In this document: positions 10,341-61,984 of the stretch, in pieces
Position numbering within the stretch: position 1 is the stretch's first letter
Layout: each line of letters starts with the position of its first letter
NCBI GenBank assembly: GCA_035363095.1
Contig: DAOSEK010000003.1
Location: 8,597-72,596, forward strand
Source: Candidatus Woesearchaeota archaeon
GTDB lineage: Archaea; Nanobdellota; Nanobdellia; Woesearchaeales; UBA119
Length of the DNA stretch: 64,000 nt
Direction: 5' to 3'
The notes under the pieces: model-generated
The model's database searches: none
Told to the model about the DNA's origin: nothing
What the model saw: the letters and a program-made list of their open reading frames with translations, nothing else
Program-made: the position numbers and the translations under genes

Positions 10341-10610
10341 ATGAAAGACCTCAGCCTAAATGCCAAGATTTTTCGTGAATAATCGAGGTTAATCCTTGCA
10401 TGGATCCGTATATTCAAACTTTTGGCTTGAAAAATCAACAACCTCACCCTAAAGGACGAGGTATGTTGGTAATATAAAAGCATGCGCTGTATTCAGCTAG
10501 GTTGTTGATTACAAAAAAGTGTACCGAGTCCTCTTGTTGAAACACGAGGTATGCTTTTCTATTGGCCAAAGTATGCGAATGAACTGGATTTCATGAAATG
10601 AAAACATACC
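10341..10610. repeat. Modular hairpin repeat family, copy 5 (H1-type module + core palindrome + arm)
   Basis: ...tcaacaacctcaccctaaaggacgaggtatgttggtaatataaaagcatgcgctgtattcagctaggttgttgattacaaaaaagtgtaccgagtcctcttgttgaaacacgaggtatgcttttctattggccaaagtatgcgaatgaactggatttcatgaaatgaaaa. Confidence 0.9.
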
Positions 10611-10637: not shown

Positions 10638-13600
10638 GTGTTTGTTCAAATGACTCAGATAAAAAAGCTTGTAATGAATGGTTTTAAGTCCTTCGCGAAA
10701 AGAACAGAGCTTAATTTTGGAAACAATTTTAATGTAATCTTAGGACCAAATGGCTCTGGGAAATCTAATGTTTTAGATGCTATATGCTTTGTTTTAGGTA
10801 GAATGAGTGCTAAGAGTATGAGGGTTGAAAGGGGCTCAAATTTAATCTATAATGGAGGACCTAAGGGCAAAACACTTGAGAAAGCAGAGGTTTCTATTGA
10901 GTTTGATAACTCCAAAAAAGAGTTCCCCTTAGAAGGAGATGTAAAGATTTCAAGAATAATACATCAAAGTGGACAAAGCGATTATAGAATAAATAACAAG
11001 AGAACTACAAGACAAAATGTAATTGATTTACTGAGTGCGGCAAAGATTAATCCTGAGGGGTATAACATAACTTTGCAAGGGGATATTACTAAGTTTATTG
11101 AGATGTCTAGTAATGAGAAACGCCAGATTATAGAGGAGATCTCAGGAATTTCAATATATCAGGAAAAAAAAGCAAAAGCTGAATCTGAACTATCAAAAGT
11201 AGAAGAAAAACTTAAAGAAGCTGATATTATTTTAAATGAGAGAAAAAATTATCTTAAGGACCTTAAAAAAGAAAGGGATCAAGCTTTAAAATACAAGGAA
11301 ATGAAAGATAAGATTGATCAAAATAGAGCTACATATCTAAATATTCAATTAACTAAGAAAAATGTGGAGTTAGAAGAAATTAAATCCAAAGCTACAAAGA
11401 TAAATGTCGAGGTTGAAAAGGCAAATTCTAAGATAGAACAATACAAAAAGAAAATTTCAGATAATAAGAACAAAAGTGAGGAAATTTCAAAACATATTGA
11501 AGAAAAAGGCCAAAAGGAACAGATTGAACTAAATAGAGAGATTGAAGGACTCAAAGTAGATTTTGAGAAGAATAAAATTATTCTTGAAAATCATAAAAGG
11601 GAGAAAGAAAAGCTCTCTGAGAGAAAGATAGCTATTGAAAATGAGATTTCAGATATTGAATCTAAAATATTATTATCACAATCACTTGTAAAGGAAAATG
11701 AATCCATTCTACTAGCTAAGAATAAAGATATAGAATTAATTAAAACAAAGGTTCAAAAAATAAAAAAAGACTATAATCTTGAAAATATTGGCGATATTGA
11801 AAGCTCATTGGAAAAAAATGATAAAGAGATCGAAGAGCTATCAGCAGAAGCAAATTCTTTAAGGGAGATTCAGCAGTCCCTTTTGAGAGAAAAGGATAGA
11901 CTTGCTTTAGAGCTTGAGATGATTTCAAAGGAAGCCGAAAAGATTGAAGGACTTAAAAAAGAACATAAAAAGGAGATTAGTGAACTTGAATCTAAAAAGG
12001 ATGAATTTAAAAAGGCTACTTTACTTTTGAATAATTTATTAAATGATGATTCTAAGATTTCGCTTGAAATTGGAGAGCTTAAAAAGAAGTCGATTTCTTT
12101 AAGAGAAAGACTTGAATCGCTCAAAATAAAAAGCGAGTCAATTAAGCAATCTCAGGCTTTTGATGTTTCGTTAAAGAAGATTCTTGAACTAAAATCTAAA
12201 TACTCAGGGATTTATGGGAAGATTTCAGATCTTGGTACCACACAGGCAAAATACTCTTCAGCCCTTGATGCTACAGCAGGAGGTTCTATGAATTATATTG
12301 TTGTTGATAACGATCAGACAGCAACTATTTGCATTAAATACCTTAAAGAAAATAAACTTGGGAGTGCTGTTTTTATTCCCTTGAATAAGATAAGATATAG
12401 CGATCCTACTCCTGAACAAAAGAAACTATTGGCAACAACTGGAGCAATTGATTTTGCAATAAACCTTGTGAAGTGTGATCCAAAGTTTAGGAATGCTTTC
12501 AAATTTGTCTTTGGCTCAACAATTGTTGTGAATGATATTGATGTTTCTAGAAGGATTGGTATTGGCAAAATAAGAATGGTTACACTTGATGGAGATTTGA
12601 CAGAAACTAGTGGACTTATGAGAGGAGGTTTTAACAAAACTAAAAGGGTTTCAGGATTTAAAAGCGAAGAGTTCTCAAAAGAGATGGAAGAGCTTGAGAT
12701 TAGTGTACAAAAGAGTGATTCCCAGATTTCTAAGCTTGCAAGGGAAAAAGACGAGATAGAATCTAAGATTTCGGAATTAAGAAATAAAAAGGCATCTTTG
12801 GAAGGAGAAATAATTAAGCTTAGTAAAGGTCTTTATCTTGATGAGAATACACTTGATGTGTCTTCAACTAAGGTCGATATTCTTAAAAAGGAATCTGGCA
12901 GAGTTGATAATGAATTATCAAAGATTGTAAGTAAGATAAGTGAGTTAAACAAGAAATTAGCAGGATTAAAGATTGATAAACAAAAGCTAAAAGAAAGTAT
13001 TTCAAAGATGAAAGACCCTGCTAAGGTTGCAGAGCTTACAACATATGAGGAGACCTTAAGAAAGCTTGAAAGGGATATATTTGAAAAGGAACCTATTATA
13101 AAGCTTGAAAAAGATAAAATTGAGTCATATAAAAAGGAAGTTGATGATTCAAAGCAAGCTATTAAAGAACTTGATAAGGAAGATTTAAAGATTACAAAGG
13201 AGATAAATGAACTTTGTAAAAGAATTGAAAACATAAATAAGGAAATTACGCAAAAAGAAGGGAAGGCTGAGAAGTTTTACGTTGAATTTAAAGAACTTTT
13301 TGAAAAGAGAAGTAAGCTTGAAAAGGAAAACCAAGTAATTGATAATGAGATTAATTCTATTTTCTCAGAGTCAAGAACTCTTGAGCAGAAATATAATCTC
13401 TTATCACTTCAGATTGTTCAGGCTGAAGGTGAGAAATCTAATCTGTGTAAACAGCTTGAACCATATGTTAAGGTAGAGCTTATTAAAAATCCTGATGAGG
13501 AACAAATTAAAAAGGAAATTGCACGATTTGAAATGCTTGTAGAGAGTATTGGTACTGTTAATATGAAGGCTTTGGAGATATATGACCTTGCCGAAGGAGA

Positions 13601-14144: not shown

Positions 14145-14229
14145 GTTACTTTATATATTGTTTTGGTGATCATAGTTTTATTTTTTTCTTGGCTTTTAGC
14201 AATATGTTTAATAGCTGTAAATAAGAGAA

Positions 14230-14628
14230 ATGAAAAAACTCGGCATAAATGTCTTAGATATCTTTAGGATATTCTAAGTTAAACGTTATGTGAATACTTC
14301 TTTTCTCAAGTTATTCTTTATTACATACCTCAAATGACCAAAGTATGCAAAATGAGCGAGGATTCCATGAAATGAAAAACCTCGGCATAAATGCCGAGGT
14401 ATCTTTAGGATAGTCAAGGTTAATCCTTGCATGAATCCGTCTATTCTGACTTTGGCTTGAAAAATCAACAACCTCGCTCTAAAGGGCGAGGTATGTTGGT
14501 AATATCAAGGCATGTTGGTAATATAAAAGCATCCGCTGTATTAAAGCGAGGTTGTTGATTACAAAAAAGCGTACCGAGTCCTCTTGTTGAAACATGAGAT
14601 ATGCTTTTCTAGTAATCAAGAAAAGAGA
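14230..14628. repeat. Modular hairpin repeat family, copy 6 (longest: extra module + H1 module + core + arm)
   Basis: Contains H1 cctcggcataaatgccgagg (14380-14399), H2 cctcgctctaaagggcgagg (14472-14491), a 13-bp outer palindrome tcaacaacctcgc/gcgaggttgttga, and an internal duplication of gcatgttggtaatat. Confidence 0.9.
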
Positions 14629-21683: not shown

Positions 21684-21838
21684 ATCTTGTCTGAGTGAGG
21701 TTCTATGTTTGAGTGAGATTCTATGTTAGAGTGCAGTTCAGTGTTTGAGCGAGGTTCTATGTTAGAGTGCAGTTCAGTATTAGAATACTGTTCAGTATTA
21801 CAGTGCAGTTCAGTGTCTGAGCGAGGTTGGGTGTTCTA
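21684..21838. repeat. Degenerate tandem repeat, about 18-bp unit (gagtgaggttctatgttt / gagtgcagttcagtgttt), about 8 copies
   Basis: Read directly; it lies in the divergent region between tgt (-) and a small membrane gene (+). Confidence 0.8.
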
Positions 21839-23606: not shown

Positions 23607-23619
23607 ACTGCAATTTTTT

Positions 23620-23925
23620 TTATTTCATGAATCCGTCATTTACATACTTTGGTTTTGGGGTTTGGTCGCAAGCCCTAAAATTTGAAGAAGCGGATTCACA
23701 TAACGATTAATCTAGAAACAATCTAGCAAGATATCTCCTAGTGTTTATGCTTTAAAGATTTTTTATTTTTGTGAGGCAATTAATCATTTTGCATACTTTG
23801 GTGCATAATACAGTAAGTAAGAACGGATAGATTTAAGATGTGTTTAAAAAAGAGAGATTTAAAAATAATAACCTTGAATTATAAATCTGATACCCAAAGA
23901 ATTTATGCTTAGGTTTTTCATCTTG
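23620..23925. repeat. Degenerate, decayed copy of the modular repeat family (copy 7)
   Basis: Contains fragments catgaatccgtc, catactttgg, ggattcac, ttttgcatactttggtg and tatgcttaggtttttcat shared with intact copies. Confidence 0.5.
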
Positions 23926-26397: not shown

Positions 26398-27114
26398 ATG
26401 AAAAAAATAGAAAAGATATTTGTGTTTTTGGTGGTGGCAGTGGCCTTTTGCACTGTGTTTGCGTTGGCAGAACCTTATGGAGCAGATGATGTAAGTTATG
26501 TTACATCTTCAAGATATAATACCAGTGCAATCTCTCCAGATTCTATTGAGGCAATAGCTGGAAATGTTACAGAAATAACACTTAATGCAACAACAGTAAC
26601 AACATCTTGGCAGGGTTTTTACGGAAATGTTACGGGAAACATAATATTAGCAGATTCCAGCGGGAATAATTTTTATGATTGGAACCTAACAAATCCATCA
26701 GGACAGGTATATGCAAGCAGATCAAATGCTGTTACGTGGGCAAGTATCGCTTGTATAACTCCAGTATTACTTTCTGGAGAGGAAACCTATCTAGGACAAA
26801 CTTCTGATGATGGAGACAGTGTTACAAATACTTATACCCTGACAAATCATCCTTGGTTTTTATCTGGTACAACCAACATAACTGGTTGCAATGCAACTAA
26901 AGCATATGATTCTACTGGAGGTCCAGGAGCAGATAGTTTTTGGCAGGTTTTATTGAGCGATGGTGTAAATACGGTATATAGCACTATTCTTGAGGATGGC
27001 CTCACAAACGGGTTTAACAATGCTCCTTGGCATTTTGAGTTATTAGTTGGTGAGAATGGAAAAACCGGTAACGAAGGTTCAACACCTTATTACTTTTATG
27101 TAGAATTACAATAA
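26398..27114 (+). CDS. Secreted N-glycosylation-sequon-rich protein, paralog family member A
   Basis: Sec signal VFLVVAVAFCTVFALA and many N-x-S/T sequons. Shares with 27281 and 36629 the blocks W(Q/K)G(F/A)YGNVTG, (F/I)Y(D/N)W, (V)Y(A/S)SR, and a C-terminal YYF(Y/F)VE. Confidence 0.6.
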   Translation: MKKIEKIFVFLVVAVAFCTVFALAEPYGADDVSYVTSSRYNTSAISPDSIEAIAGNVTEITLNATTVTTSWQGFYGNVTGNIILADSSGNNFYDWNLTNPSGQVYASRSNAVTWASIACITPVLLSGEETYLGQTSDDGDSVTNTYTLTNHPWFLSGTTNITGCNATKAYDSTGGPGADSFWQVLLSDGVNTVYSTILEDGLTNGFNNAPWHFELLVGENGKTGNEGSTPYYFYVELQ

Positions 27115-27280: not shown

Positions 27281-28021
27281 GTGATTAAAATTAAAGTCAA
27301 AAAAACAAGAATTATTAGATTTTTAACTATGTTTTGTGCGGTGGGTTTTATTTTTATGGTAGCATTATTTACCAAAGCAGACCCTTCAAGTGGAACAACA
27401 ATTAGCAGTAATGTAACTGATAGTGGAAGAACTTATACCCCAGCAAACAGAACGGATCCTGGGGGAACAATTACAACTTTTTCTGTTGATGCTCAACAGC
27501 AAGATACCAGATGGAAGGCTTATGTGGGAAATGTTACAGGAAGTTTAACTTTAGATGATAGTAATGGGATGACAATATATAATTGGACAGTGGGACTTGC
27601 AGATATTACAGGTGAAGTGTATTCTTCACGTGCTTCATCCATATCTTGGAGTCTTATAAGGTGTGCAAACACTACAATTGTTGCTTCAGAACAAACTACC
27701 TTAGGAATGAATTCATCTTCAGCAGATACTATCACAAAGACATTCAATGAAACTACTCATCCTCAATTTGTTACTGCAGGTAAAACCATTAGTTCAGGAT
27801 GTAATGCAACAGCAACCTATGTAAATGACCAAAGACAAGAACAAGCCTCAGCAACATTTCCGATAATTTTGTTAGATGATCAAACTAATTTAGTTTATAC
27901 AACTTTAATGAATCGAAATTCAACAGGTTTTGATAACAGAAGGTATGATTTTCAGATGATTGTTGCAAATAATCCTGCAAGCACCACCACTTATTATTTT
28001 TTCGTAGAACTAGGTAATTAA
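27281..28021 (+). CDS. Secreted N-glycosylation-sequon-rich protein, paralog family member B
   Basis: RWKAYVGNVTGSLTLDDSNGMTIYNWTV...EVYSSRASSISW...YYFFVELGN. Start may be the internal Met at about 27329. Confidence 0.6.
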   Translation: MIKIKVKKTRIIRFLTMFCAVGFIFMVALFTKADPSSGTTISSNVTDSGRTYTPANRTDPGGTITTFSVDAQQQDTRWKAYVGNVTGSLTLDDSNGMTIYNWTVGLADITGEVYSSRASSISWSLIRCANTTIVASEQTTLGMNSSSADTITKTFNETTHPQFVTAGKTISSGCNATATYVNDQRQEQASATFPIILLDDQTNLVYTTLMNRNSTGFDNRRYDFQMIVANNPASTTTYYFFVELGN

Positions 28022-28022
28022 A

Positions 28023-28928
28023 ATGCAAAGTCGTGAAGCAATTAGGAATGTGTATAAGTTAGCATTTTTGTTAATTTTAATTTTCACGTTATTCTTTGCA
28101 TTTTCAGGAATAGTGGCGTCTTATAACTACGAACACGTAAATGTTACATCAAAGGTTAATGTAACTAACGCAGGTCCAGAGATATTAAATACATACATTA
28201 GTTCACCAGTGGTATTAAATGCCGGCACTACAAAAATTGTTTATTGTAATGCAACAATAAGAGATTGGAACGGATTTGGAGATATAGATAATGTTAATGC
28301 TACTTTTTATTATCACTTGAATAATTCACATGATCCTGACGATAATAATGTACATTATACAAACGGTTCTTGTGAAGCAATATCAGATGATGGAGTATAC
28401 ATCGCAAATTATTCGTGTTCATTTGAGGTTTATTATTATGCGAATAACGGAACTTGGAGATGCAATATTTCTGCAAATGATAGTTATTCTTATAATGCCT
28501 CAAACACTACATCAAATGCTACAATAAATGCACTTTATGCTTTGAATGTTACAGATGTAATAGATTACGGAGATCTTTCTGTTACTGATACTAGTGGAAA
28601 TATCACTGCAACAGTAACAAATTTTGGTAATGTTCCAATTAATGTAAGTGTTTTGGGATATGGCGTTACACAAGGTGATGGTGTAGGGTTAGTTTGTGAG
28701 TATGGTTCAAACATAAGTGTTGAGAATCAAAGATTTTCAGGAGCATTAGTCAGTTGGGATGATAAGACATTGCTTGGAACAGAAAATAAGGATGTAGAGA
28801 TTACAATTGGAAAACAAACCGAACCTTTAACTCAGATAACCGCTAATACATATTGGCAACTTTATGTCCCACCAAATCCTTTTGGTCTTTGTACGGGAAC
28901 TATAAGATTCACAGCAACTACACCATAA
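28023..28928 (+). CDS. Secreted sequon-rich surface protein (301 aa)
   Basis: Signal/anchor LAFLLILIFTLFFAFSGIVAS and very many NxT/NxS sites (NVT, NAT, NGS, NYS ...). Confidence 0.5.
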   Translation: MQSREAIRNVYKLAFLLILIFTLFFAFSGIVASYNYEHVNVTSKVNVTNAGPEILNTYISSPVVLNAGTTKIVYCNATIRDWNGFGDIDNVNATFYYHLNNSHDPDDNNVHYTNGSCEAISDDGVYIANYSCSFEVYYYANNGTWRCNISANDSYSYNASNTTSNATINALYALNVTDVIDYGDLSVTDTSGNITATVTNFGNVPINVSVLGYGVTQGDGVGLVCEYGSNISVENQRFSGALVSWDDKTLLGTENKDVEITIGKQTEPLTQITANTYWQLYVPPNPFGLCTGTIRFTATTP

Positions 28929-29032: not shown

Positions 29033-29168
29033 TTCAACAACCTCACCTTAAAGGGCGAGGCATGTTGGTAATATAAAAGCATGCACTGTGTTAAAGCAAG
29101 GTTGTTGATTACAAAAAAACGTACCGAGTCATCATGTTGAAACACGAGGTGTGCTTTTCTATTAATAA
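29033..29168. repeat. Modular hairpin repeat family, copy 8 (core + arm only)
   Basis: tcaacaacctcaccttaaagggcgaggcatgttggtaatataaaagcatgcactgtgttaaagcaaggttgttgattacaaaaaaacgtaccgagtcatcatgttgaaacacgaggtgtgcttttctattaataaa. Confidence 0.9.
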
Positions 29169-29199: not shown

Positions 29200-30408
29200 A
29201 TGAGCGATAATTATAGGTTTACAAGAATTGTTAATATGCAGATTGTACTAGTGGTTTTTTTGATAATTTTTGCAAACTTTGGAGTATCTGCATTATTAGG
29301 AGTTAATAGGGTTAGTTTGACTTATAATGATGTTTTAAGAGGGGGATATGCACAGGATAATGTAGTTATAACAATTGGAAGTGATGAATTAATACCTGTA
29401 AATTTTGAGGCTAAAGGAGATATTAAAGAATGGATACGTTTTGAGCCTTTGGATGGCCCTTTACTTGTAAATAAAGATAATAGTGGCATGCTAAAAATAA
29501 TTGTAGAGCCCCCTATTGATTCTAGAGTAGGAGCTTATGAAGGGAAGGTGCTCATTACTACGGGTTCATTAGGCCGAGTTGAATCCGAGATGGGCTCAAG
29601 TGTCGAGGTTGCCTTTGAATTGAAGATTGTAGTGATTATATCTGATACTCAGATCTTATCATGCAACTCTGGCGGATTTGAGATAAAAGACTCTGAGATT
29701 GGACAACCTAATGAATTTTTTGCAACAATTATGAATAATGGCAATGTGAGAATTAAACCATTTATTGAATTTAAAATTTTTGACCAATTGCAAGAACAAG
29801 AGATACTAAGTACGTCATATTTATCTAAAAATGAAATATTACCCACTACATCTCAAGAGATTATTGATTTTATAGAGTTAAATCTTTCAAAAGGACAGTA
29901 CTGGGTTGAGATTAAAAGTTCTGAATGCAGTGGAGATGGTGCACTTAGAACTTTTTCTATACTTGAGAAAGGAGAAATTGGTGATGTTGGCGAGTTTGTG
30001 AGAATAGATAATTTGCCTTGGGCAAGTACTAAAGAGTTAATCCCTATTGTCGCTCATTTCAGAAATAGAGGAGAGAGAAGTGTGTCTGCACAATTTAAAG
30101 GAACTATTAGTAAGGATGGTAAAATTGTCCAAGTTTTAGAATCTGATATTTTAACCGTTGCACCACAGGAAACAGTACCTATTGAAATGTTTTTTAGCCC
30201 AAAAGATATTGGTCAGTACAAAATTAATGGCAGGGTATACTACAACAACAAAATTACCTTTCAAAAGGGTTCTATTATTAATGTTAATCCATCTAATTCA
30301 TTGGAAGAATCAAATGGGGAATTTATGTTAAGTATAATTTTATCGGTAATAATTGTAATTATAGCAGTATTTGTTTTCTTGATAATAAAAAGGAAAAAAA
30401 ATAAATGA
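29200..30408 (+). CDS. Large surface protein with N-terminal signal anchor and C-terminal TM anchor + basic tail
   Basis: N-terminal VLVVFLIIFANFGVSA; C-terminal ILSVIIVIIAVFVFLIIKRKKNK. Confidence 0.5.
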   Translation: MSDNYRFTRIVNMQIVLVVFLIIFANFGVSALLGVNRVSLTYNDVLRGGYAQDNVVITIGSDELIPVNFEAKGDIKEWIRFEPLDGPLLVNKDNSGMLKIIVEPPIDSRVGAYEGKVLITTGSLGRVESEMGSSVEVAFELKIVVIISDTQILSCNSGGFEIKDSEIGQPNEFFATIMNNGNVRIKPFIEFKIFDQLQEQEILSTSYLSKNEILPTTSQEIIDFIELNLSKGQYWVEIKSSECSGDGALRTFSILEKGEIGDVGEFVRIDNLPWASTKELIPIVAHFRNRGERSVSAQFKGTISKDGKIVQVLESDILTVAPQETVPIEMFFSPKDIGQYKINGRVYYNNKITFQKGSIINVNPSNSLEESNGEFMLSIILSVIIVIIAVFVFLIIKRKKNK

Positions 30409-30600: not shown

Positions 30601-32757
30601 TCAGTAAATTTTTATGTTCTCAGGCGTATGTTGTAGTGAAATGTTTTTTACTGAGCTTAGGTCTTCTAATGAGTTAATTCTTAAAAGATTTAATGATTTG
30701 GTATAAAGCAAATCTTCAATGTATAAACTTCTTTCTACACCTGCACCTAAGTATCTATTAGCACCAGTGGAGTGGTCTATTAAACCTCTTAGTGTTATTG
30801 AGTCTTTACTTATATTGTATACTAAAGCACCATTATAATTTTCAGAGGTTTTCTCATAGTTATAGTTATATCCTGGGATTACCAAGAGGTTTTTTTCTCT
30901 TGAAAACAAGAATGCTTTGTGTTCGTAAAGAGCAGTGGAATCTGAGTAACGCTCTTCTGATAAATAACTTGCAATCTCTTTAGGTTGCGATACATCACTT
31001 ACATCAAAAAGCGATATTTTAAGCCCTTTGATTCTGCCGGTTTGTGTTGCATCTTTTCCAATCCCAATTATTGTTGATTCATCATAAGGATGTAGATAGT
31101 TTGAAAACCCTGGAATTTTTAACTGACCTAACTCTTTGATTTCAAAAGGGTCTGATAAATCAATTACAAAGAATGGATCTATTTGCTTAAAGGTAACCAT
31201 ATAGAGCTTATCCGCAATAAACCTTGTTGAATATATTCTTTCATCCTCAGCAAGACCATCTAGTTTATCAAGAATTTTAAGGTTTTTATCAAGTGTATAT
31301 ATTTGATTTGTTGAAACTTTTCTTGAGGTGTCATAACTAGACCATCTAGGGCTTAATGTCGTTGCAATCCTGAATACTTCGTTATATTCATCCATGGAAA
31401 ATTGATTAATTATACTTCCTGCAACCTTATTATTTGCACTAGGAGTTATTTCACCTTTTTCAACTGAGATCTTATTGATTACCGTAAATTCAAAGGCCTC
31501 AAAATCCTGAAGTTTCTTTTTTATTTCTTCTTCAAGCATATCTTCTATTTCTTCTTGTTTATCAGGATCAAGAGAATTGAAATAATCGTTATATACATTA
31601 AGTATCTTATATCTTTTTTCGTAGAGAGTAAGCACATCATTATCAGTAGCCTTTACTTTTTCGATGTATGTTTTTTGTTTATCTGTTAATTTGTCTTTGA
31701 ACAACTCAATTGTCAAGTCTTGCTTTAACTCGTACTCATTGATATATTTGGTATATGTTATATATATGTTTTCTTGGGACATGTATATGTTTTGAGAGCC
31801 TTCAACCAAGAACGATTTTGATTTGATTTGATTGTCTGGTTTTGCTATATTTAGAGAACTAATTGTAACAAAAATAGGGTTATCGTAAGGTATTGGGTAA
31901 TAGTAAAGATTTGATACATCAACCTGTTTTGGTGTCATTCCCTCGTAATATATAGGAATTGGGTAATCTCTTCGATATGAAGGATAAGTCGTTGTTAAAA
32001 AATATATATAACCTTGCGACATCCTTGAATTAAAGTAGTTTCCTTCAAATTTATACTCAGCCGTAAGGACTGGTGCTGACCTATCAGCGATATCATAAAG
32101 TTCAAAAAAACTGAATTGTTGATTTGGAATATATGCATCTATCGATCTTATAAAAGGGTCATTTCTTCCAATGTTTCCAAAGACTGCTAGATTATCTTCA
32201 TAAATGAAAAGACCAGCTGGAGAGTTATTAAATTTAATTGTAGATATTACTTTGGCATCTTCTCCAGGATATGCCTTGATGATATATAGTATGTTTTTTG
32301 AAATGGTGTATATGTAATTGCCATCTGTTTTAAGTATATCTCCTTCATCAATTCCTGTAACCTGCACATTTGTTTCAGAGTAGTCTAAAGATTCTCCTTT
32401 AGCAACACTTGCTTGAGAAAGAACCATTGAACTATCACTTGCAAGTGAATCCATTGAAAAAGAACTTTCCATGTTTCTTAAATATGGATAAGCATAGTAA
32501 TCTTGATTAGAATTTCGATTTAAAAATTCGAAAACTTCTTCAGCAGACTTAAATTGTAGTGCTTTTAGGTCTTTAGATTTTGCTAGATTTTCAAATGTAT
32601 ATTCTTTTGTTAATCCAGATGGATTCTTTGAAATTGTGATGGTGTTTACACAGGAACTAAAAATAAAGCCCCCTATTAAAATTATAGCTAATACAAAAAT
32701 TAGATTTGTTTTTTGAATACTTTTTTCATTCATAATCGTTTTATCCATTAAAATCAC
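30601..32757 (-). CDS. Secreted beta-propeller domain protein (718 aa)
   Basis: N-terminal signal anchor LIFVLAIILIGGFIFSSC, then repeated strand-like segments consistent with a beta-propeller domain family protein. Confidence 0.5.
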   Translation of the reverse strand: MILMDKTIMNEKSIQKTNLIFVLAIILIGGFIFSSCVNTITISKNPSGLTKEYTFENLAKSKDLKALQFKSAEEVFEFLNRNSNQDYYAYPYLRNMESSFSMDSLASDSSMVLSQASVAKGESLDYSETNVQVTGIDEGDILKTDGNYIYTISKNILYIIKAYPGEDAKVISTIKFNNSPAGLFIYEDNLAVFGNIGRNDPFIRSIDAYIPNQQFSFFELYDIADRSAPVLTAEYKFEGNYFNSRMSQGYIYFLTTTYPSYRRDYPIPIYYEGMTPKQVDVSNLYYYPIPYDNPIFVTISSLNIAKPDNQIKSKSFLVEGSQNIYMSQENIYITYTKYINEYELKQDLTIELFKDKLTDKQKTYIEKVKATDNDVLTLYEKRYKILNVYNDYFNSLDPDKQEEIEDMLEEEIKKKLQDFEAFEFTVINKISVEKGEITPSANNKVAGSIINQFSMDEYNEVFRIATTLSPRWSSYDTSRKVSTNQIYTLDKNLKILDKLDGLAEDERIYSTRFIADKLYMVTFKQIDPFFVIDLSDPFEIKELGQLKIPGFSNYLHPYDESTIIGIGKDATQTGRIKGLKISLFDVSDVSQPKEIASYLSEERYSDSTALYEHKAFLFSREKNLLVIPGYNYNYEKTSENYNGALVYNISKDSITLRGLIDHSTGANRYLGAGVERSLYIEDLLYTKSLNLLRINSLEDLSSVKNISLQHTPENIKIY

Positions 32758-32934
32758 CTTTATGCTCTCTTTGATTGGAGCTTATTAAATTTAATGGTTT
32801 AATCAATTATTTGTAATTTAAATATGTGTTGTATAACTTCTAATATCATTGAAGTGATTTTTAGCAAGAAAGTGATATTGGCAGTATTGTGTGGGTTATA
32901 CATTTATCAGGATTACTTCAATCTTTCTATATTA

Positions 32935-33505
32935 ATAATTAATGAGAAACCTTAAAGCATAAATGCCTTAGGTGTCTTGCAGATAGTTAAATGTTTTCCT
33001 TGCTTAAATTTCTAATTGTTAATCGTTAAGTGAACCCATCTCTTCTTACATAGGACCCAAAAGGTCAAGATGTGTAAAATGAGCTAGACTTCGCAATAAT
33101 GAAAACCCTCTGAATAAATGAAAGGTGACTTGCGAATACTCAAGGTTAATCGTTTAGTGAATCCATTTCTTCAAACTTCAGGCCCAAAGACCAAACCTCA
33201 AGACCAAAGTATGGGAATGAACTGGATTTCATGAAATGAAAAACCTCGGCATAAATGCTCCAGTTATCTCGCGAATAGTTGAGGTTAATCCTTGCATGAA
33301 TCCGTCTATTCAAACCTTAGGCCTCAAAACCAAAGTATGCGAAGTGATGCTGGATTTCACGAAATGGAAAATCAACAATCTCTCCCTAAAAGGCGAGCTA
33401 TGTGCTAATATAAAAGCATGCACTATATTTAGCAAGGTTGTTGATTACAAAAAAGCGTACAGAGTCCTCGTGTTTAAACACGATATCTCCTTCTCTATTA
33501 ATCAA
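32935..33505. repeat. Tandem array of three module variants + core + arm of the repeat family (copy 9, about 570 bp)
   Basis: Successive units start at about 32942, 33056 and 33200 (each ...ccaaag..atgaaaa(a)cc..taaatg..gaggttaatc..gaatcc..caaac). They are followed by tcaacaatctctccctaaaaggcgag...aaggttgttgattacaaaaaagcgtacagagtcctcgtgtttaaacacga. Confidence 0.85.
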
Positions 33506-33711
33506 TGTAAATAAAACATACTAGTACAAAAATTAATTATTTTAAAATTATATATTTGAACGCAGAATACAACTTAGAATATTTGGAATCTAATTAATAA
33601 AATCTAAAGGGATATTATTGAAAATGTTAGTTTTTTGCTCATAATTCAACTAAAAAAGAAAATATTTAAAAATAGAAAACACAAACGCTATTTATAAGAG
33701 GTGTTTTTAGT

Positions 33712-34050
33712 ATGGCTAAAAAGAAAGAAAATAATCAAAATGTGCTTGGGATGCTCTCCCATTTGCTGATTTTTGTTGCAGGATTTGTTGTTCCGCTTAT
33801 CTTTTACCTAATATACAAGGAAGATAAAGCCAATAAGTTTGTTTCTGAGAACGCAAGACACGCTTTGAATTTTTGTATAAGTTTATTTATATATTGGATA
33901 GCAGTTTTTGTGTTATCTTTTGTTGTTATAGGTATTTTCCTTATGCCTGTGCTTGGAATATTTGCGTTTGTAGTAGTAATACTTGCAAGTGTTAAATCTT
34001 ACAAAGGCGAGATATATAAATACCCTTTAGAGATTGAATTTATAAAATAA
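33712..34050 (+). CDS. DUF4870-like small membrane protein
   Basis: TM-x-ENARHALNF-x-TM-TM pattern and 112 aa, characteristic of the DUF4870 family. Confidence 0.45.
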   Translation: MAKKKENNQNVLGMLSHLLIFVAGFVVPLIFYLIYKEDKANKFVSENARHALNFCISLFIYWIAVFVLSFVVIGIFLMPVLGIFAFVVVILASVKSYKGEIYKYPLEIEFIK

Positions 34051-36628: not shown

Positions 36629-37369
36629 TTAGGATATCTCTGCAAAGAAATAATAGGTACTAGGCGTTGGACTTGTTGGATCCTCAGGAACTATTAACTG
36701 GAAGTTGTAGTTTGCTAAATCATATCCTGCAGTCGAATCCTCAAGTATTGTTGTATAAACAACATTTCCATCTATATCAGATAATAATACCTCTTGGAAA
36801 AATGAATCTTCTGAAACTTCTTGGATACTATCATTTACATAAGTGGATATTGCTCTACAACTACTATTTGATATTTTTACTGTTCCAACATAAAAGGACT
36901 TATGAGTAGTAGTATTAAAAGTATTATTAATACTATCAGATAAAGAGCTATTAATATTGAGAGTACTCTCTTCTGAACTGATATCCGTTGGTTCACTGCA
37001 ATTTATAGTTGACCAATTTATCTGAGAGCTTCTTGATACATATATCTCCCCAGAGATTATTGCAAGGTCCCAGTTATATATTGATTTTCCACTAGCATCA
37101 TCTAAAGTTAATAGCCCTGATATATTACCTACATAGGCCTTCCACCTTTCGGTTTGGAAGCTTCCATTAAGTATCATTGTAGTAAATGAGCCACCAGCCG
37201 TTGTCAGTGAAGCTGCTTGACTAGGAGCAATAGTTTCAGTGACATTATAAGTAATATTAAGACCTGTTGGAATCGCCAATACAATCAAAGGGTTTAATAT
37301 TATACAAAGGCTGATCAGTAATAAAAACAGATATGTGACTTTTATAGATTTAGTTAAAGGAGGTATCAT
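36629..37369 (-). CDS. Secreted N-glycosylation-sequon-rich protein, paralog family member C
   Basis: ERWKAYVGNISGLLTLDDASGKSIYNWDL...EIYVSRSSQINW...YYFFAEIS. Start MIPPLTKS overlaps the upstream stop as ATGA (37366-37369). Confidence 0.55.
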   Translation of the reverse strand: MIPPLTKSIKVTYLFLLLISLCIILNPLIVLAIPTGLNITYNVTETIAPSQAASLTTAGGSFTTMILNGSFQTERWKAYVGNISGLLTLDDASGKSIYNWDLAIISGEIYVSRSSQINWSTINCSEPTDISSEESTLNINSSLSDSINNTFNTTTHKSFYVGTVKISNSSCRAISTYVNDSIQEVSEDSFFQEVLLSDIDGNVVYTTILEDSTAGYDLANYNFQLIVPEDPTSPTPSTYYFFAEIS

Positions 37370-37950
37370 TTTTGAACACCCCCTGATTTTTGATGAGATG
37401 ATTTTTGAGAGTTTAACTTTTTTTGAGCTCTTGATAAAACTGTCCAAATTGTCTTTGGGCTTTTGTTTAGAAGTGATGCGATTTCATTCAAGTTTAGAGA
37501 TTTTTCCTTAAGACTTAGTGAGATACACTCCAAAATAGATAGATTAGAATTTCTAAATACTTCTGTATTTACAAAAAATCCTTTATTTAAGAATAACTCG
37601 GCGGTAAAACGTTTTTGAGTTTTTACAGCGTTATATGTTGACCATATTGTTCTTGGGTCTCTACCTAATAAAACTGCAATCTGAGAAAAAGAAAGGGATT
37701 TCACTTCAATTAAATACTTTACAATTGCTCTAAGTCCACTAATTTTTGTGGAGAAAATTTTAATTGGGAGTTCTACACCTTTTTTTTCAAGTAAATTTTC
37801 TTTTGAAGGCTTTAACAAATCAAAAACAACAGGTCTTCCAAACTCATCAAAACTATCGCCTATATTTACTGAATAAGAAACAGAATACTCGCAATTACCT
37901 GTTTTTTGAAAGAACATATACTTATCATGTAAGAACTTATTTATAAACAT
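37366..37950 (-). CDS. DNA-binding protein with two sigma-70 region-4/LuxR-like HTH repeats
   Basis: LSFSQIAVLLGRDPRTIWSTYNAV and LNLNEIASLLNKSPKTIWTVLSRAQKKL. Stop is translationally coupled (ATGA) to the secreted paralog C. Confidence 0.5.
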   Translation of the reverse strand: MFINKFLHDKYMFFQKTGNCEYSVSYSVNIGDSFDEFGRPVVFDLLKPSKENLLEKKGVELPIKIFSTKISGLRAIVKYLIEVKSLSFSQIAVLLGRDPRTIWSTYNAVKTQKRFTAELFLNKGFFVNTEVFRNSNLSILECISLSLKEKSLNLNEIASLLNKSPKTIWTVLSRAQKKLNSQKSSHQKSGGVQK

Positions 37951-40808: not shown

Positions 40809-42692
40809 TTATGCTCTTCGTTTAAAGAGTTTTTCAAGGTTTTCTTCATCAAATTCAATAATGGTAGGTCTTCCATGAGGGCAAGTGAAAGGATTTACGC
40901 ATTCAAAAAGCTCTTTTAATATATTGTTCATCTGCACAAATGAGAGCTCTTCACCTGCTTTTATTGATTTTTTGCAAGCAATCGTATATAGGATTCTTTG
41001 ATCTATCAAATCAGCTATTGATTTATCTAAGAAATTCTGAGCCAACTCTTCAACTAAAATGTTTGTTTGGTTTTCGTCCATCTCTTTTCCTAAGATAAGG
41101 GGTATTGAACGAATAATCACTTCATTTTCCCCAAACTCTTCTATTTCAAAGCCAATTTTTTTAAAGTAGTTCTTTTTCTCTTTTAGCACTTCTTTATACT
41201 TTTGATTAAGAAAAATTAAGAATGGCTTTAAAAGGACTTGAGAGCTTATTAATCCAGAGTTGTATTCCTTTTCAATCTTTTCAAAATTTATTCTCTCGCA
41301 TGCCGCGTGTTGGTCAATTAATGCAAGCCCTTTTGAGGTTTGAGCAACAATGTATGTTTTATTAACTTGCCCTAAAATTCTGAATATAAGTTTATCTTTT
41401 CCATACAAGACATTTATTTGTGTATTCTCATCTTTAGAGCCAGTTTTAGTAGCGATTATTTCATTTTCTTTTAGATCTAATGATGAGAAATCTTTTTTCA
41501 TGAATTTCTCATTTTTAAGTGTTGTAAGTTTTGATTGATTTAATGAGTATTTTGTCTCTTTCTCATTGGTATAGAATTTATCCTGTGATTTGGTAAGTTC
41601 ATCATTTCTAATTGTTCTATTTTCATCTGCGCTTGGATATGATTTATCTTTATTAAGAAATGGGCTATAATTGGGCTTTTTGATTTCCTGACTCTCAATC
41701 AGATTGTTTTCTTTTAAAGTTTTTTTAATTGCTTCATAAACAGAATAATAAACTAGTTGTTCATTATCAAATTTTACTACGAGCTTAGAAGGATGAACAT
41801 TTACATCTATTCTTTTAGGGTCCAAAGTTATTTTTAGTATCACTATAGGCTTTCTTTTTAAAAAAAGCATTGATTTATAAGAATCTATAATTGAAGAGTT
41901 TATTAAATCTGATTTTACATACCTTCCATTAACAAAAATGCTTATGTAATCATTTGATTCTCTAGCAATAGTGGGTTTTCCGGCAAAACCTTTAATTTTG
42001 ATAAATTCATTTTCAAAACTCACATCACAAAGATTTTTTGCAATAAGATTTCCATAAATATAGCTTATTCTGGAGATTTCATCAATCCCATTTGGAACCT
42101 TTAAAAATGGCTGTTTCTCTTTATATAAAAAAAAGCTTATATTCGGAAATGAGAGAGCATATCTTTGTATTAGATCTGATATATGCGAGAATTCAGTCGC
42201 ATCAGATTTGAGATATTTTTTTCTTGCAGGAGTATTATAAAATAAATCCTTGACAATCACACTTGTTCCTAATGGATGTGATACTTGGGTAATTTTGCTA
42301 TCTTCGGAGTTAATTTGGTATCCAACGCTTGTTTCTTTTGTTCTTGAAGTTACGCTAACTCTACTAATTGAGGCAATTGATGCTAATGCTTCACCTCTAA
42401 AACCCATTGTAGCAATATTATATAAATCCTCTTCGGTGATGATTTTGCTTGTTGCATACCTTTCAAATAACAAAGGCAAATCATCTTTTTGAATTCCTTG
42501 ACCATTATCTGTAATTCGAATCTCTTTTTTCCCAGATGAAAATATTGTTATTTTTATTTCATCAGCATTAGAATCAATTGAATTTTCAACAAGTTCTTTT
42601 ACAACTGAAACAGGTCTTTCAACTACTTCTCCTGCTGCAATTTTTGCAACAATTTTACCATCCAATCGGTTTATTTTTTGCATTTTATTCAA
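40809..42692 (-). CDS. mutL: DNA mismatch repair protein MutL
   Basis: N-terminal GHKL ATPase IAAGEVVERPVSVVKELVENSIDS...DNGQGI; 627 aa. Confidence 0.9.
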   Translation of the reverse strand: MNKMQKINRLDGKIVAKIAAGEVVERPVSVVKELVENSIDSNADEIKITIFSSGKKEIRITDNGQGIQKDDLPLLFERYATSKIITEEDLYNIATMGFRGEALASIASISRVSVTSRTKETSVGYQINSEDSKITQVSHPLGTSVIVKDLFYNTPARKKYLKSDATEFSHISDLIQRYALSFPNISFFLYKEKQPFLKVPNGIDEISRISYIYGNLIAKNLCDVSFENEFIKIKGFAGKPTIARESNDYISIFVNGRYVKSDLINSSIIDSYKSMLFLKRKPIVILKITLDPKRIDVNVHPSKLVVKFDNEQLVYYSVYEAIKKTLKENNLIESQEIKKPNYSPFLNKDKSYPSADENRTIRNDELTKSQDKFYTNEKETKYSLNQSKLTTLKNEKFMKKDFSSLDLKENEIIATKTGSKDENTQINVLYGKDKLIFRILGQVNKTYIVAQTSKGLALIDQHAACERINFEKIEKEYNSGLISSQVLLKPFLIFLNQKYKEVLKEKKNYFKKIGFEIEEFGENEVIIRSIPLILGKEMDENQTNILVEELAQNFLDKSIADLIDQRILYTIACKKSIKAGEELSFVQMNNILKELFECVNPFTCPHGRPTIIEFDEENLEKLFKRRA

Positions 42693-42945
42693 TTATGTGT
42701 CTTTATTAAATTGTAAGGACTTGAATATATTTAATAATTATAGTGATGATTATATTATCAATAATAATCAATGTTAATATTAATAATAACAACATACAAT
42801 CATCATCATAATGATGATAAGTATGATAAAGCCCATTAGTATAATGATGATAATTATAATAACAACCTACAATCATTAATATAATGACAACATTGATAAT
42901 AATAGTAATAATAATATATCACAGGGCATAAATTGTGTTAAATTA

Positions 42946-45510
42946 TTATTTTTCCCAATTTCTAAAAAGCTCTAATTGTTTGGGTTCTTTTTTTCCTGAG
43001 ACCTTATTTAACATATCATTATCTTTAAAAAATTGTTCTTGAATCTCCTTTGAACGCTCTATTATTTCGTTTGGGATTCCTGCTAATTTTGCAACATGAA
43101 TCCCATAGCTTTTATCTGTTGAGCCTCTAACTATTTTTCTTAAAAAAACAATACCTTCTTCTCTTTCTTTTACCAATATGTTGTAATTTGTTATGTTTTT
43201 ATATTCTTCGGTGAGCTTATTTAATACATGGTAATGCGTTGCGAAGATAGTTTTTGCCTTTATATGTTTATATATGTACTCTGCTATTGACCAAGCAAGG
43301 CTTACACCATCATAAGTTGATGTTCCTCTTCCTAACTCATCAATGATTATCAATGAATCGCTTGTTGCATTGTTTAAAATGTTAGCAGTTTCACTCATTT
43401 CAACCATAAATGTGCTTTGTCCTTGGCTTAGGATATCATGTGCTCCAACCCTGGTGAAAATTCTATCAACCACTCCAATTTTTGCGTGTTTACAAGGAAC
43501 AAAAGAACCTAATTGAGCCATTAGAACTATTAGTGCAATCTGTCTCATAAATGTAGATTTTCCAGCCATATTTGGGCCAGTCAATATTATAAGCTCATTT
43601 GAGGATATTAATATATCATTAGTTATGAAATTATCAATGTGTTGTTCAACAATTGGGTGTCTACCCGACTGGATTTCAATGATTTTATCTCTGTTAATTA
43701 GTGGTTTAGTGTAATTATTTTCAATAGCAATTAAAGCTAAATTTGTTAATACATCAATTAAAGCAAGCTGTCTTGCAATTTGCTGTATATCTTCAATAGT
43801 TTTATACACTGCATTTAGTATTTCTAGGAATAACGAATTCTCAAGGTCTAAAATCCGCTCTTCAGCTCCAAGTATTTGGTTTTCTAGTTCTTTTAGCTTT
43901 TGAGTGGAGTATCTGCTCCCAGAGACAAGAGTTTGTTTTACAACATAATCTCTTGGAACAAGATCTTTTTTTGCATTGCCAATACTAATAAAGTAACCTA
44001 TAACCTTATTGTAATTGATTTTAAGTGTTGAGATATTTGATTTTTGTCTTTCTTCATATTCTAATTGCTGGATGAATTTTTTGCTATTTTTTTTAATTTG
44101 TCTTAAATCATCTAGCTCTTTACTATACCCTTCTTTTATTACATTTCCTTCTCCCACTTTCAAGGCAGGCTCATCTGTTATGCTTTGATCTAAAAGATTT
44201 TTTAAATCAGTTAAGAGAGGTAATGTAGAAATATTTTTTAGTAATGAAGAATTGAATGTAGAAAGCAGATTTTTAAGTTGAGGGAGTTTTCCAATAGTAT
44301 GCCTCAGGGAAGCTAAGTCTTTTGGATTTGCAGATTTAAAAGATACCCTACTAGATATTCTTTCAATATCAAAGCATCCTTCTAAAAGGGTAGAAAGTTC
44401 ATCGCAATTGATTTTATTCTTCTTGAGTTCATCAATTGCTTCAAGCCTTTCTTTTATTTTATCTACATCTTTTAAAGGAGATAAGATCATTCTTTTTATT
44501 AGTCTTGAGCCCATTGCAGTTTTAGTTTTGTCTAATACCTCTAATAAAGTGTATTTTTTGGTTTTATCGTATATATTTTCACATAGTTCAAGATTTCTTA
44601 TGCTATATTCATCTAATACCATGTAATCATTGAAATCAACAAATTTTAGGTTTTTTATGTTTGATATTCCCTGCTTTTGAGTTTCTAAAAGATAACCCAA
44701 TAGTGCACCAGCACTCTTTATTGCAATCTCTTTTGATTCAACACCAAAACGAATCAAAGAGCCTACCTGGAAATGCTCTTTTAATGTATCATATGCATAA
44801 TCATATGAAAAAACTTTGTCATGCAGATATGTTATATAGATCTGTTCTTCTTTTATTTTTGAGATTAGTTCTTTATTTATTGCATAGCTTTCAGGGATTA
44901 AGCATTCGGAAGGAATATAGGATTTTAACACGGAAAATAGATTGTTTATTCCAACACCTTCAGATATTATGAACTCACCTGTAGAGATATCACAAAGTGC
45001 TATTCCAAAACCCTGCGCATTGACAAAGAATGATGCTATAAAATTGTTATTTCCTTTTTCTAAAAGCTCATCCTCTATTATTGTTCCAGGGGTTATTATT
45101 CTTACAATATCCCTTTTTACAAGTCTCCCTTTGGCATTTTTTGGATTTTCTATTTGTTCAACTATTACAACCTTATATCCTAATGTAACAAATTTCTTAA
45201 GATATCCATTTAACGAGTGATATGGAATACCGGCAAGTGGTGCTTTTTTTTCTCCTTTGCCCCTTGAAGTCAAGGTAATTTCTAAAACCCTTGAAGAAGT
45301 TATTGCATCCTCATAAAAAGTTTCATAAAAATCTCCCATTCTAAAAAGAACTATACAATCAGGATGTTTTTGTTTTATCTCAACATACTGTTTCATCGCA
45401 GGGGTTAATTGACTATCATCAAATATCCCATCTTGTTGTTTTTGGTCCATAAAAATAAAGAAGGGAATATTCTTTTTTAAATCTTTATATTTAGCTGTTA
45501 TTTTTGGCAC
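42946..45510 (-). CDS. mutS: DNA mismatch repair protein MutS
   Basis: N-terminal mismatch-binding TPAMKQYVEIKQKHPDCIVLFRMGDFYETFYEDA, Walker A TGPNMAGKST, and DELGRGTSTYDG; 854 aa. Confidence 0.9.
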   Translation of the reverse strand: MPKITAKYKDLKKNIPFFIFMDQKQQDGIFDDSQLTPAMKQYVEIKQKHPDCIVLFRMGDFYETFYEDAITSSRVLEITLTSRGKGEKKAPLAGIPYHSLNGYLKKFVTLGYKVVIVEQIENPKNAKGRLVKRDIVRIITPGTIIEDELLEKGNNNFIASFFVNAQGFGIALCDISTGEFIISEGVGINNLFSVLKSYIPSECLIPESYAINKELISKIKEEQIYITYLHDKVFSYDYAYDTLKEHFQVGSLIRFGVESKEIAIKSAGALLGYLLETQKQGISNIKNLKFVDFNDYMVLDEYSIRNLELCENIYDKTKKYTLLEVLDKTKTAMGSRLIKRMILSPLKDVDKIKERLEAIDELKKNKINCDELSTLLEGCFDIERISSRVSFKSANPKDLASLRHTIGKLPQLKNLLSTFNSSLLKNISTLPLLTDLKNLLDQSITDEPALKVGEGNVIKEGYSKELDDLRQIKKNSKKFIQQLEYEERQKSNISTLKINYNKVIGYFISIGNAKKDLVPRDYVVKQTLVSGSRYSTQKLKELENQILGAEERILDLENSLFLEILNAVYKTIEDIQQIARQLALIDVLTNLALIAIENNYTKPLINRDKIIEIQSGRHPIVEQHIDNFITNDILISSNELIILTGPNMAGKSTFMRQIALIVLMAQLGSFVPCKHAKIGVVDRIFTRVGAHDILSQGQSTFMVEMSETANILNNATSDSLIIIDELGRGTSTYDGVSLAWSIAEYIYKHIKAKTIFATHYHVLNKLTEEYKNITNYNILVKEREEGIVFLRKIVRGSTDKSYGIHVAKLAGIPNEIIERSKEIQEQFFKDNDMLNKVSGKKEPKQLELFRNWEK

Positions 45511-46652: not shown

Positions 46653-46761
46653 CGTATAAAAAACTTATTTATTATTGTTAAATAGTTAAAAAAATACAGT
46701 TAAAAAATATAGTTAATATAGTTAGAATAAATAATAGATAAAAAAACCTTGGACTAATTAC

Positions 46762-46908
46762 CAATGTATCTCGCAGATATTAGAGCTTAATCGTTTAGTA
46801 AATTCATCTCTTTTTACACAGGCACCAAATTCAAAGAGAGGTTGTTGATTTAAAAAAAGAGTACGGAACCCTCGTGTTGAAACACGAGGTATCCTTTTCT
46901 ATCAATGA
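46762..46908. repeat. Modular hairpin repeat family, copy 10 (partial module + arm with perfect H3 hairpin)
   Basis: tctcgcagatattagagcttaatcgtttagt...aggttgttgatttaaaaaaagagtacggaaccctcgtgttgaaacacgaggtatccttttctatcaatg; H3 cctcgtgtt-gaa-aacacgagg at 46870-46889. Confidence 0.85.

Positions 46909-61930: not shown

Positions 61931-61984
<54 letters not shown>

Follow-up and report, generated by a model that had tools for sequence, protein, structure and literature searches.

A three-unit head-to-tail array from a modular intergenic repeat family of an uncultured woesearchaeal archaeon, probably re-assorted by recombination between repeat copies

Transposable elements of the miniature inverted-repeat type (MITEs), for example the SM elements of Sulfolobus, are non-autonomous, short, intergenic and multi-copy. 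The repeats described here have the same properties, but the terminal inverted repeats and target-site duplications that define MITEs are absent from them. They form a head-to-tail array between two genes in a 64,000-nucleotide (nt) stretch of DNA (contig DAOSEK010000003.1; hereafter the window) from a Candidatus Woesearchaeota archaeon, where a preliminary description had likened them to nested MITEs, a comparison that fails for lack of these two features. Copies are built from modules that we named U (~95 nt), T (~35 nt) and C (~130 nt). With a probability that we put at roughly 70%, the locus holds members of a dispersed, non-coding, hairpin-rich repeat family, with U-T stacked three times before a stand-alone C and the array re-assorted by ectopic homologous recombination. 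The family is previously undescribed, whereas its kind, small modular non-autonomous intergenic repeats, is already known; by analogy, its closest counterparts would be the pneumococcal BOX elements in behaviour and the haloarchaeal palindrome-associated transposable elements (PATEs) in end structure.

BOX elements of Streptococcus pneumoniae have the architecture boxA-boxB(n)-boxC (PMC3049150). Like the present family, they are small, non-coding, modular intergenic repeats with tandem inner modules and a composition that varies by locus and strain, and they share with it predicted stem-loops, spurious open reading frames (ORFs) and reshaping by unequal crossover (PMC3049150). BOX elements differ in their terminal inverted repeats, target duplications and bacterial host, and their tandem part consists of near-identical copies of the 45-nt boxB, whereas our family stacks whole, diverged 130-nt elements from different subfamilies. 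Nor do we see the fixed outer modules with a variable inner count that characterise BOX: the whole U-T repeats, and module order varies. The REP sequences and BIMEs of Proteobacteria (PMC2817692) resemble the family as mosaic intergenic hairpin clusters of high copy number that are substrates for rearrangement. However, REPs are 20-40 nt long, alternate in BIMEs and are tied to RAYT, while the modules described here are 35-130 nt long and run in one direction; no RAYT gene was seen.

PATEs of Haloquadratum walsbyi are derived from IS200/IS605 elements (PMC3119063; PMC4810608). As described (PMC3119063), they match our family in their archaeal hosts and in a length insufficient to encode a protein, in having no terminal inverted repeats or target duplications, in carrying near-terminal palindromes (similar to each other, in our family, within C) and a conserved terminal oligonucleotide, and in being heterogeneous, with long and core-less versions and element-in-element conglomerates. 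The family itself likewise has no inverted terminal repeats or target duplications and is too short for a transposase, its only recurring frame having 13 codons. Unlike PATEs, it has no related IS605-type transposon or Y1 transposase in the ~190 kb examined (the 64-kb window plus ~125 kb of related loci), and the palindrome at the T end differs from that at the U end, so that similar end palindromes hold for C. The stacking of elements head to tail, in order and with a constant 3-nt overlap, has no counterpart in the parts of the PATE description consulted.

The array lies in the divergent intergenic region 32758-33711. We mapped its modules with nhmmer, using profile hidden Markov models built from better copies elsewhere in the window, and found the order U1-T1-U2-T2-U3-T3-C over 32941-33505:

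30601-32757, minus strand: flanking gene for a Beta_propel (PF09826) protein (Pfam)
32941-33061, plus strand: U1, the most degenerate U, with the 5' hairpin CCTTAAAGCATAAATGCCTTAGG and a 28-nt insert (nhmmer E 1.8e-7, 30 bits)
~33057-33100, plus strand: T1, degenerate (CCAAAAGGTCAAGATGTGTAAAATGAGCTAGACTTCGCAATAAT), ~64% identical to the T copy at window 14330 and under the nhmmer threshold
33098-33189, plus strand: U2 (nhmmer E 3.8e-16, 57 bits), nearest relative at window 57600, 80% identical
33172-33209, plus strand: doubled 20-nt spacer (CAAACCTCAAGACCAAAGAC) in the U2/T2 interval (Tandem Repeats Finder)
33204-33237, plus strand: T2 (nhmmer), 97% identical to the T copy at window 10566
33235-33329, plus strand: U3, the best preserved of the three U modules (nhmmer E 2.5e-25, 87 bits)
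33330-33365, plus strand: T3 (nhmmer E 5.8e-11)
33371-33499, plus strand: C, whole module (nhmmer C profile E 2.2e-36)
33371-33446, plus strand: C1 half of the core (nhmmer C profile and predicted fold, pairs 128-139 with 194-205)
33447-33499, plus strand: C2 half of the core, called the arm in the preliminary description, with the nested hairpin AAAAGCGTAC..CCTCGTGTTTAAACACGA (profile and fold)
33500-33505, plus strand: terminal word AATCAA, common to C-ending and T-ending elements (end alignment)
33712-34050, plus strand: flanking gene for a DUF4870 membrane protein (Pfam)

This map and the self-alignment of the region bear out the initial proposal of a head-to-tail array of three variants followed by a further module. 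A blastn self-match pairs 33145-33371 with 33018-33243 (69% over 241 columns, E 6e-18), a repeat search finds a 67-nt core in three copies at spacings of 127 and 139 nt, and the units align to each other at 57% (U1T1/U2T2), 58% (U1T1/U3T3) and 71% (U2T2/U3T3) identity compared with 50% (standard deviation 2%) for shuffled sequences. The divergence of the units keeps Tandem Repeats Finder from calling the ~130-nt period on the array; the program's sole report is the 20-nt repeat at 33172-33209. The G+C content of 32935-33505 is 37-40%, against 18-26% in the surroundings. The last 3 nt of T2 (AAT) are also the first 3 nt of U3, and the synteny of strains breaks at this T2/U3 edge (~33234). In C1, a predicted long-range stem pairs ATCAACAATC (33371-33380) with GGTTGTTGAT (33436-33445) and encloses one hairpin and the invariant word TAATATAAAAGCATG, while the C2 hairpin is partly degraded at the array, with ATATCTCC in place of the consensus GGTATGC. 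Two details of the preliminary description need correction: no arm in the sense of T (ccaaagtatgcgaa...catgaaat) follows the core here, where the stretch ends CTATT-AATCAA at 33505, and the arm end said to be nearly identical to the module start shares with it only the 3-nt overlap (AAT) and the 6-nt word ATGAAA.

The array belongs to a family with at least 16 loci in the window, on both strands, or about one per 4 kb. Profile matches cover 4.6% of the window, which is a lower bound in that the profiles missed a degenerate copy at 10020-10180. The commonest forms are U-C-T (~255-260 nt), of which a related genome has 10 copies, and U-T (~130 nt). Module order varies (U-C-T, U-T-C, U-U-C-T), and within a cluster all modules share one orientation. 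The capacity of units to join end to end, first proposed from this array, is seen again at window 14229, at window 4463 and on the related contigs L024, L025 and L028. L024 carries a second (U-T)x3-C, beside a tRNA and an AlaRS gene. Both L025 and L028 have U-T-U-C, and a start of the same U-T-U kind is found on the short contig L027.

Comparison of the array among short-read metagenome contigs ~99% identical to the window revealed several alternative arrangements:

Window and nine other contigs: beta-propeller-U1T1U2T2 joined to U3-T3-C-DUF4870, five with a 15-nt tandem duplication in C
L049: beta-propeller-U1T1U2T2 joined to a different U-T and then an hjc gene, without C
L045: beta-propeller-U1T1U2T2 joined to U-T-C followed by the AlaRS flank (92% identity to L024)
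L002 and L003, from two samples: flank with an RNase Z-like gene joined to U3-T3-C-DUF4870
L028: flank with an RNase Z-like gene joined to a U that matches the first 78 nt of U3 bar one mismatch and then diverges, followed by T-C-T and hjc

The left part of the locus meets three right parts at an identical T|U junction, and the right part has two left partners, with 44-63 nt of exact identity across the joints. Recombination between copies, one of the origins first suggested for the array, is supported by these ~99% identical strains with alternative partners at the same T|U junction. At a second locus, L019 and L020 follow window 4608/4858-7461 at 99.96% identity up to the T|C edge of the element at window 7426, exactly where they pass into another U variant and another gene. 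The simplest reading of these comparisons is that recombination between copies remodels the array and rearranges the chromosome. We also considered the length difference between L028 and L002 as the insertion of an element and rejected this, as 200 nt are replaced by 1130 nt as a block.

Smaller differences between strains were also seen inside the modules. The 15-nt GGTTGTTGATTACAA within C (window 33426-33445) is doubled in L004-type strains (L004, L002, L003 ~11095-11125), and a 19-nt doubling at window 14464-14514 is not in L045 or L046 and is present in the C copy of L024, at another locus. A cluster of substitutions at 33418-33433 reads ACTATATTTAGCAA in the window and GCAGTATTAAAGCGA in L004 and L002, strains that are otherwise 99% identical, which suggests a gene-conversion patch from another repeat copy.

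The units of the array are less like each other than like copies at other loci. Identity among the U modules of the array is 52-72%, whereas U3 is 89% identical to a copy in L028 and 87% to one in CAZTMQ01, a metagenome-assembled genome (MAG), and U2-T2 has a 14-16-nt spacer (…CTCAAGA..AACCTCAAGA) that marks a subfamily also found at L024 10021, L002 17222 and window 23616. Slippage or recent local duplication is thus unlikely, and the replication slippage offered earlier as an origin finds no support in the 52-72% identity in U between array mates compared with 80-89% to copies elsewhere.

The host is an archaeon by its genes: the window encodes TFIIB, NMD3, an archaeal CCA-adding enzyme, NurA and a diphthamide synthesis protein, together with a homologue of the queuine/archaeosine tRNA-ribosyltransferase (TGT), at a G+C content of 30%. 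Many metagenome samples, and also the NCBI MAG GCA_029556185.1, contain contigs that match the window at 99-100% identity. When one genome per species was scanned with a core pattern, the matches were a single MAG (CAZTMQ01) and one contig binned elsewhere. Viral contigs gave 0 matches to three patterns of the family. CAZTMQ01 is a related species, with 79% nucleotide identity to the window in the SMC gene and 62-88% identity between orthologous proteins. Despite this distance, the two genomes agree in 98.5% of the C consensus, differing at 2 of 130 positions. Mean pairwise identity of C copies is 84% in the window and 95% in CAZTMQ01. In the syntenic block GAPDH-CCA-x-NMD3-SMC an element lies upstream of GAPDH in both species, and element-bearing intergenic regions of 673, 368 and 749 nt in the window correspond to short, empty regions of 184, 85 and 132 nt in CAZTMQ01. 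This pattern of divergence is what spread by copying from a conserved source would be expected to leave, with selection on the sequence as the alternative.

The module map, the family, its pattern of divergence and the alternative strain junctions are directly observed, whereas the agency of homologous recombination, rather than of a site-specific enzyme, in the exchanges is inferred. The family behaves like a non-autonomous selfish element, its copies star-like around a consensus nearly common to the two species, almost wholly intergenic, in either orientation, and differing in occupancy between orthologous intergenic regions. Ectopic homologous recombination in the conserved stretches common to copies, with the T-end/U-start junction GGATTTCATGAAAT|GAAAAACCTCGGCATAAATGC as the key stretch, would then assemble and re-assort the array. 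Since such exchanges would fall inside conserved parts of modules, breakpoints would seem to lie at module edges, units would be mosaic and the chromosome would be rearranged; every exchange would also swap flanking chromosome segments and so make the array a rearrangement hotspot. The original spread was plausibly by transposition in trans, most plausibly by a hairpin-recognising enzyme of the IS200/IS605 (PATE-like) type.

Several points weigh against this account. Contigs assembled from short reads, the source of the alternative junctions, can be chimeric at repeats. However, the 44-63 nt of shared identity is shorter than the k=141 suggested by the contig names, L002/L003 and L019/L020 are two pairs of independent assemblies, each pair giving its junction twice, and the third unit of L049 is a sequence absent from the other arrangements. 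Single-element gain or loss is not seen in close strains: around six window genes, no clean presence or absence of an element was found, the strains showing the same occupancy or rearrangements. Transposition is therefore deduced from divergence and species comparison only, and orthologous intergenic regions of the related species are too diverged for insertion boundaries to be placed by alignment. Homologous recombination explains the spread and shuffling of T|U joints but not the first joint, for which microhomology (ATGAAA) or targeted insertion is possible. The near-identical consensus of the two species could reflect selection for function rather than a mobile source, and the CAZTMQ01 copies were fetched by a 26-nt pattern inside C, which favours conserved copies and biases their identity upward.

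A possible but clearly less probable explanation is targeted transposition, in which an incoming U-T or C inserts at a short site carried by resident copies, an IS200/IS605-type Y1/HUH transposase acts in trans and the family is a PATE. Iterative insertion at a preferred site, also put forward in the preliminary description, is thus possible. With every module starting ATGA or ATCA and every element ending AATCAA, copies would stack in a fixed register. The ends of the elements are consistent with this. All T|U joints, in five independent arrays, are in one register, GGATTTCATGAAAT|GAAAAACCTC, with a 3-nt overlap. Elements end AATCAA, as …CATGAAATCAA or …CTATTAATCAA, and C starts AAATCAAC. The sequence ATCA, ATAA or ATGA follows ends in ...GAA or ...TTA in all but a few copies, and these tetranucleotides are reported targets of IS605B/ISC transposons, which insert without duplication (PMC4810608). 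No terminal inverted repeats were found, the ends GAAAAACCTC... and ...CATGAAATCAA having only ATGAAA/TTTCAT in common, and the flanks of ~30 copies contain no direct repeat that could be a target-site duplication, the AATCAA at both C edges belonging to the conserved module ends; PATEs are defined in the same way (PMC3119063). Three hairpins in the same orientation share the foot CCTCG...CGAGG-TAT: one at the U start (CCTCGGCA-TAAA-TGCCGAGG-TAT), one at the C start (CCTCACCC-TAAA-GGGCGAGG-TAT, 7 nt from the C start counted from ATCAAC) and one in the second half of C (CCTCGTGTT-GAA-AACACGAGG-TAT, ~21 nt from the C end). In U-T, the palindromes at the U end and the T end differ. Finally, four of five arrays show U-profile scores that climb from 5' to 3', suggesting ordered accretion.

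Other observations speak against targeted transposition. An empty site was not recovered, so target and element end are indistinguishable, and the 14 nt of GATTTCATGAAATC form a perfect palindrome, an indication that CAA is part of the element and not of the target. The score gradient may stem from subfamily bias of the profile, and insertion upstream of ATGA would place the newest copy 5'-most, opposite to the gradient observed. In the ~190 kb sampled there are no genes for a Y1 transposase, TnpA, TnpB or IscB and no transposase-like or multi-copy ORF, and we found no U...T pair enclosing a transposase-type ORF. One recombinase gene was encountered near a module: in a related MAG, L011 6124-6951 encodes a serine recombinase (Resolvase and Recombinase domains) ~500 nt from a solitary T at 5600-5634, with no link shown between them.

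It is doubtful that selection maintains the units as functional structured RNAs or as cis-regulatory modules (terminators, insulators, mobile promoters or small RNA genes), with the array forming, upstream of the DUF4870 gene, a regulatory region in several copies. The modules have the following consensus sequences:

U (~95 nt): AATGAAAAACCTCGGCATAAATGCCGAGGTATCT..GATAGTCGAGGTTAATC..CATGAATCCGTCTATTC..CTTTGGC.T.AAAA
T (~35 nt): CCAAAGTATGCGAA..GGATTTCATGAAAT
C (~130 nt): ATCAACAACCTC...GAGGTTGTTGAT, then TACAAAAAAGCGTACCGAGTCCTCGTGTTGAAACACGAGGTATGCTTTTCTATT

T (CCAAAG...CGGATTCATG) and the 3' part of U (CATGAATCCG...CTTTGG) are imperfect inverted repeats of each other, so U-T is predicted to fold as a long hairpin, with the core in its loop in U-C-T. 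One U-C-T copy folds beyond shuffled sequences on both strands (z = -4.0 and -3.7), whereas folding of the whole array is only marginally above shuffles (z = -2.1). In RNAalifold models of 16 U-C-T and 22 U+T copies the pairs are mostly invariant and covariation is slight because most pairs never vary, which is uninformative either way; the exception is one pair of the long-range U:T helix around C (AU 8, GC 8, GU 4). In a three-helix model 79% of cells pair, with a covariation score of 0.113, which 1 of 500 shuffles reaches, compared with 0.086 in shuffles and 0.03-0.06 for slid partners. Mismatches of the A.C and G.T types in two hairpins number 52 and 21, respectively; this excess would favour folding of the complementary strand, but we draw no conclusion from it, as most cases are inherited from the consensus.

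Regulatory RNAs would imply transcripts that start ~25 nt downstream of TAATATAAAAG or end at T-runs, and T-runs do follow hairpins on the opposite strand. In favour of function are also the consensus kept at 98.5% between species and the invariant, unpaired, TATA-box-like GGTAATATAAAAGCATG. On the other side, orientation relative to neighbouring genes is mixed (11 elements sense, 5 antisense), hairpins are broken in many copies and no Rfam family reaches its threshold: at gathering thresholds, Rfam reports only a tRNA-Arg in the window, and at E-value thresholds only chance-level matches and a weak partial match to HEARO. Promoter and terminator scans gave counts not above shuffles, with a promoter model that is bacterial. 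In all C copies GGTAATATAAAAGCATG (window 33389-33404) is invariant or nearly so, unpaired in the folds and similar to an archaeal TATA box; the C2 hairpin starts ~25 nt downstream of it and ends in CTTTTCTATT, and the two could form a small transcription unit.

HEARO, the IscB omega-RNA (RF02033), resembles the family in that the C1 half aligns to its first domain, with a UCAAC...GUUGA outer stem and a CCCUAAAGG-loop hairpin. At 20.9 bits, the match (window 10434-10559 and other C1 copies) stays below the gathering score of 83; its E-value of 0.014-0.021 is obtained only in searches of 221-341 nt, and in 16 kb it is unreported at E<=1. The large 3' domain of HEARO is missing from the family and no IscB gene was found. 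We therefore reject membership of HEARO, the match being below the gathering score and confined to the first domain, and treat the lead as unproven. In a speculative and rather unlikely combination, the family would be a single-strand satellite of the Y1/HUH kind (IS200/IS605 superfamily) that targets itself and has a degenerate omega-RNA-like (HEARO P1-like) scaffold as its core, each insertion making the next landing site (ATGA/ATCA, the start of every module) and the resulting ordered arrays then serving as portable recombination cassettes by which the chromosome is reshuffled; or else the modules would be mobile promoter/terminator units with a TATA-like box.

Local tandem duplication or slippage of a single U-T unit is very improbable and largely refuted: it would fit the head-to-tail units, their near-constant spacing (127 and 139 nt) and the small slippage events that do exist inside elements (15 nt in C, 19 nt at 14464 and the 20-nt spacer), but the units are only 57-71% identical, come from different subfamilies and are each nearer to copies at other loci, and strains exchange whole right-hand parts rather than simple unit steps. 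An assembly artefact that collapsed or chained dispersed copies, a danger the preliminary description had named, is scarcely credible, for although contigs of this organism often stop at these repeats (many are 1-6 kb long), the units are too diverged for collapse and the array recurs at 99-100% identity with both unique flanks in independent assemblies from at least 7 samples and different pipelines (ENA, JGI).

Apart from the array, profiles placed the following family members in the window:

704-832: stand-alone C
4463-4816, minus strand: U-U-C-T
7426-7684, minus strand: U-C-T
8636-8780, minus strand: U-T
10340-10604, plus strand: U-C-T, the full-length reference
14229-14611, plus strand: U'-T-U-C, the second array in the window, its C with a 19-nt tandem duplication that is polymorphic among strains
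23616-23751, minus strand: U-T
29034-29163: stand-alone C
46742-46902: partial copy, U-C2
48939-49200, plus strand: U-C-T
56046-56174, plus strand: stand-alone C
57600-57726, plus strand: U-T, the short reference
59459-59551, minus strand: partial copy, C2-T

Upstream of the U-C-T at 10340 lies the copy missed at 10020-10180, which is very degenerate and on the minus strand (…GGTATTTATGCTTGAGTGGTTTTTCATT…). Just upstream of an element at 660-848, a 21-nt unit (TAAGTATCTTGCTAGATAGTC) is repeated 3.2 times at 550-616; it is similar to the central palindrome of U (GTATCT..GATAGTC), and the stretch looks like a U with an internal triplication. Three genes terminate within repeat modules. The TAA in the loop of the C1-type hairpin is the stop codon of enolase (56062-56064, within window 56046-56064) and of a 301-amino-acid (aa) gene (28926-28928, within window 28915-28928), and the stop of a 402-aa gene is the TGA of the U start AATGAAG (window 30397-30408); in all three genes the final codons appear to have given way to the elements.

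A 92-aa ORF runs across U3-T3-C on the plus strand (33236-33514, from the ORF list). It had been called spurious, and we agree: the same frame has a median of 13 codons in 32 other copies, is 69 aa long in 99%-identical strains and has no Pfam match. The ORF starts at the ATG within AATGAAAAACC of U3, and only a 1-nt insertion in the hairpin (GCTCCAG) lets it read through. Most U copies contain the 13-codon frame (MKNLGINAEVSRE; window 33235-33276), which stops at a conserved TAG. We rejected MKNLGINAEVSRE as a conserved 13-aa peptide, its substitutions being mostly non-synonymous.

The window has further repeats and gene groups of its own. At 21688-21831, between genes, TGTTTGAGTGAGGTTCTA is repeated in tandem with a period of 18 nt (~6.5 copies; super-periods of 36 and 54 nt); this array is unrelated to U, T or C. 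Beside the U-T at 57600, a 16-nt unit (GTTGTTTTCTTAGTAT) is repeated 3.5 times at 57747-57802; relative to the window, L029 and L031 have a 16-nt gap in this region that may reflect a different number of copies. At 61932-61984 lies a perfect (TTA)17.7 microsatellite. Three paralogous proteins of ~240-270 aa, 34-46% identical and without a Pfam domain, are encoded at 26398-27114, 27281-28021 and 36629-37447, and L016 encodes two further members of this group. Adjacent MutS and MutL genes of bacterial type occupy 40809-45510 of this archaeal DNA.

Taken together, these data document a modular repeat family of very high density in an archaeal lineage that is uncultured and low in GC, in which stacks of repeats are, on the recombination reading that we prefer, sites where close natural strains exchanged chromosome segments. 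The repeats explain both the fragmentation of assemblies and the spurious gene calls for this organism, and caution is warranted in that synteny-based binning may fail at these loci. The family offers a tractable case for the spread of archaeal repeats that have neither terminal inverted repeats nor target-site duplications and for the question of their descent from IS200/IS605.

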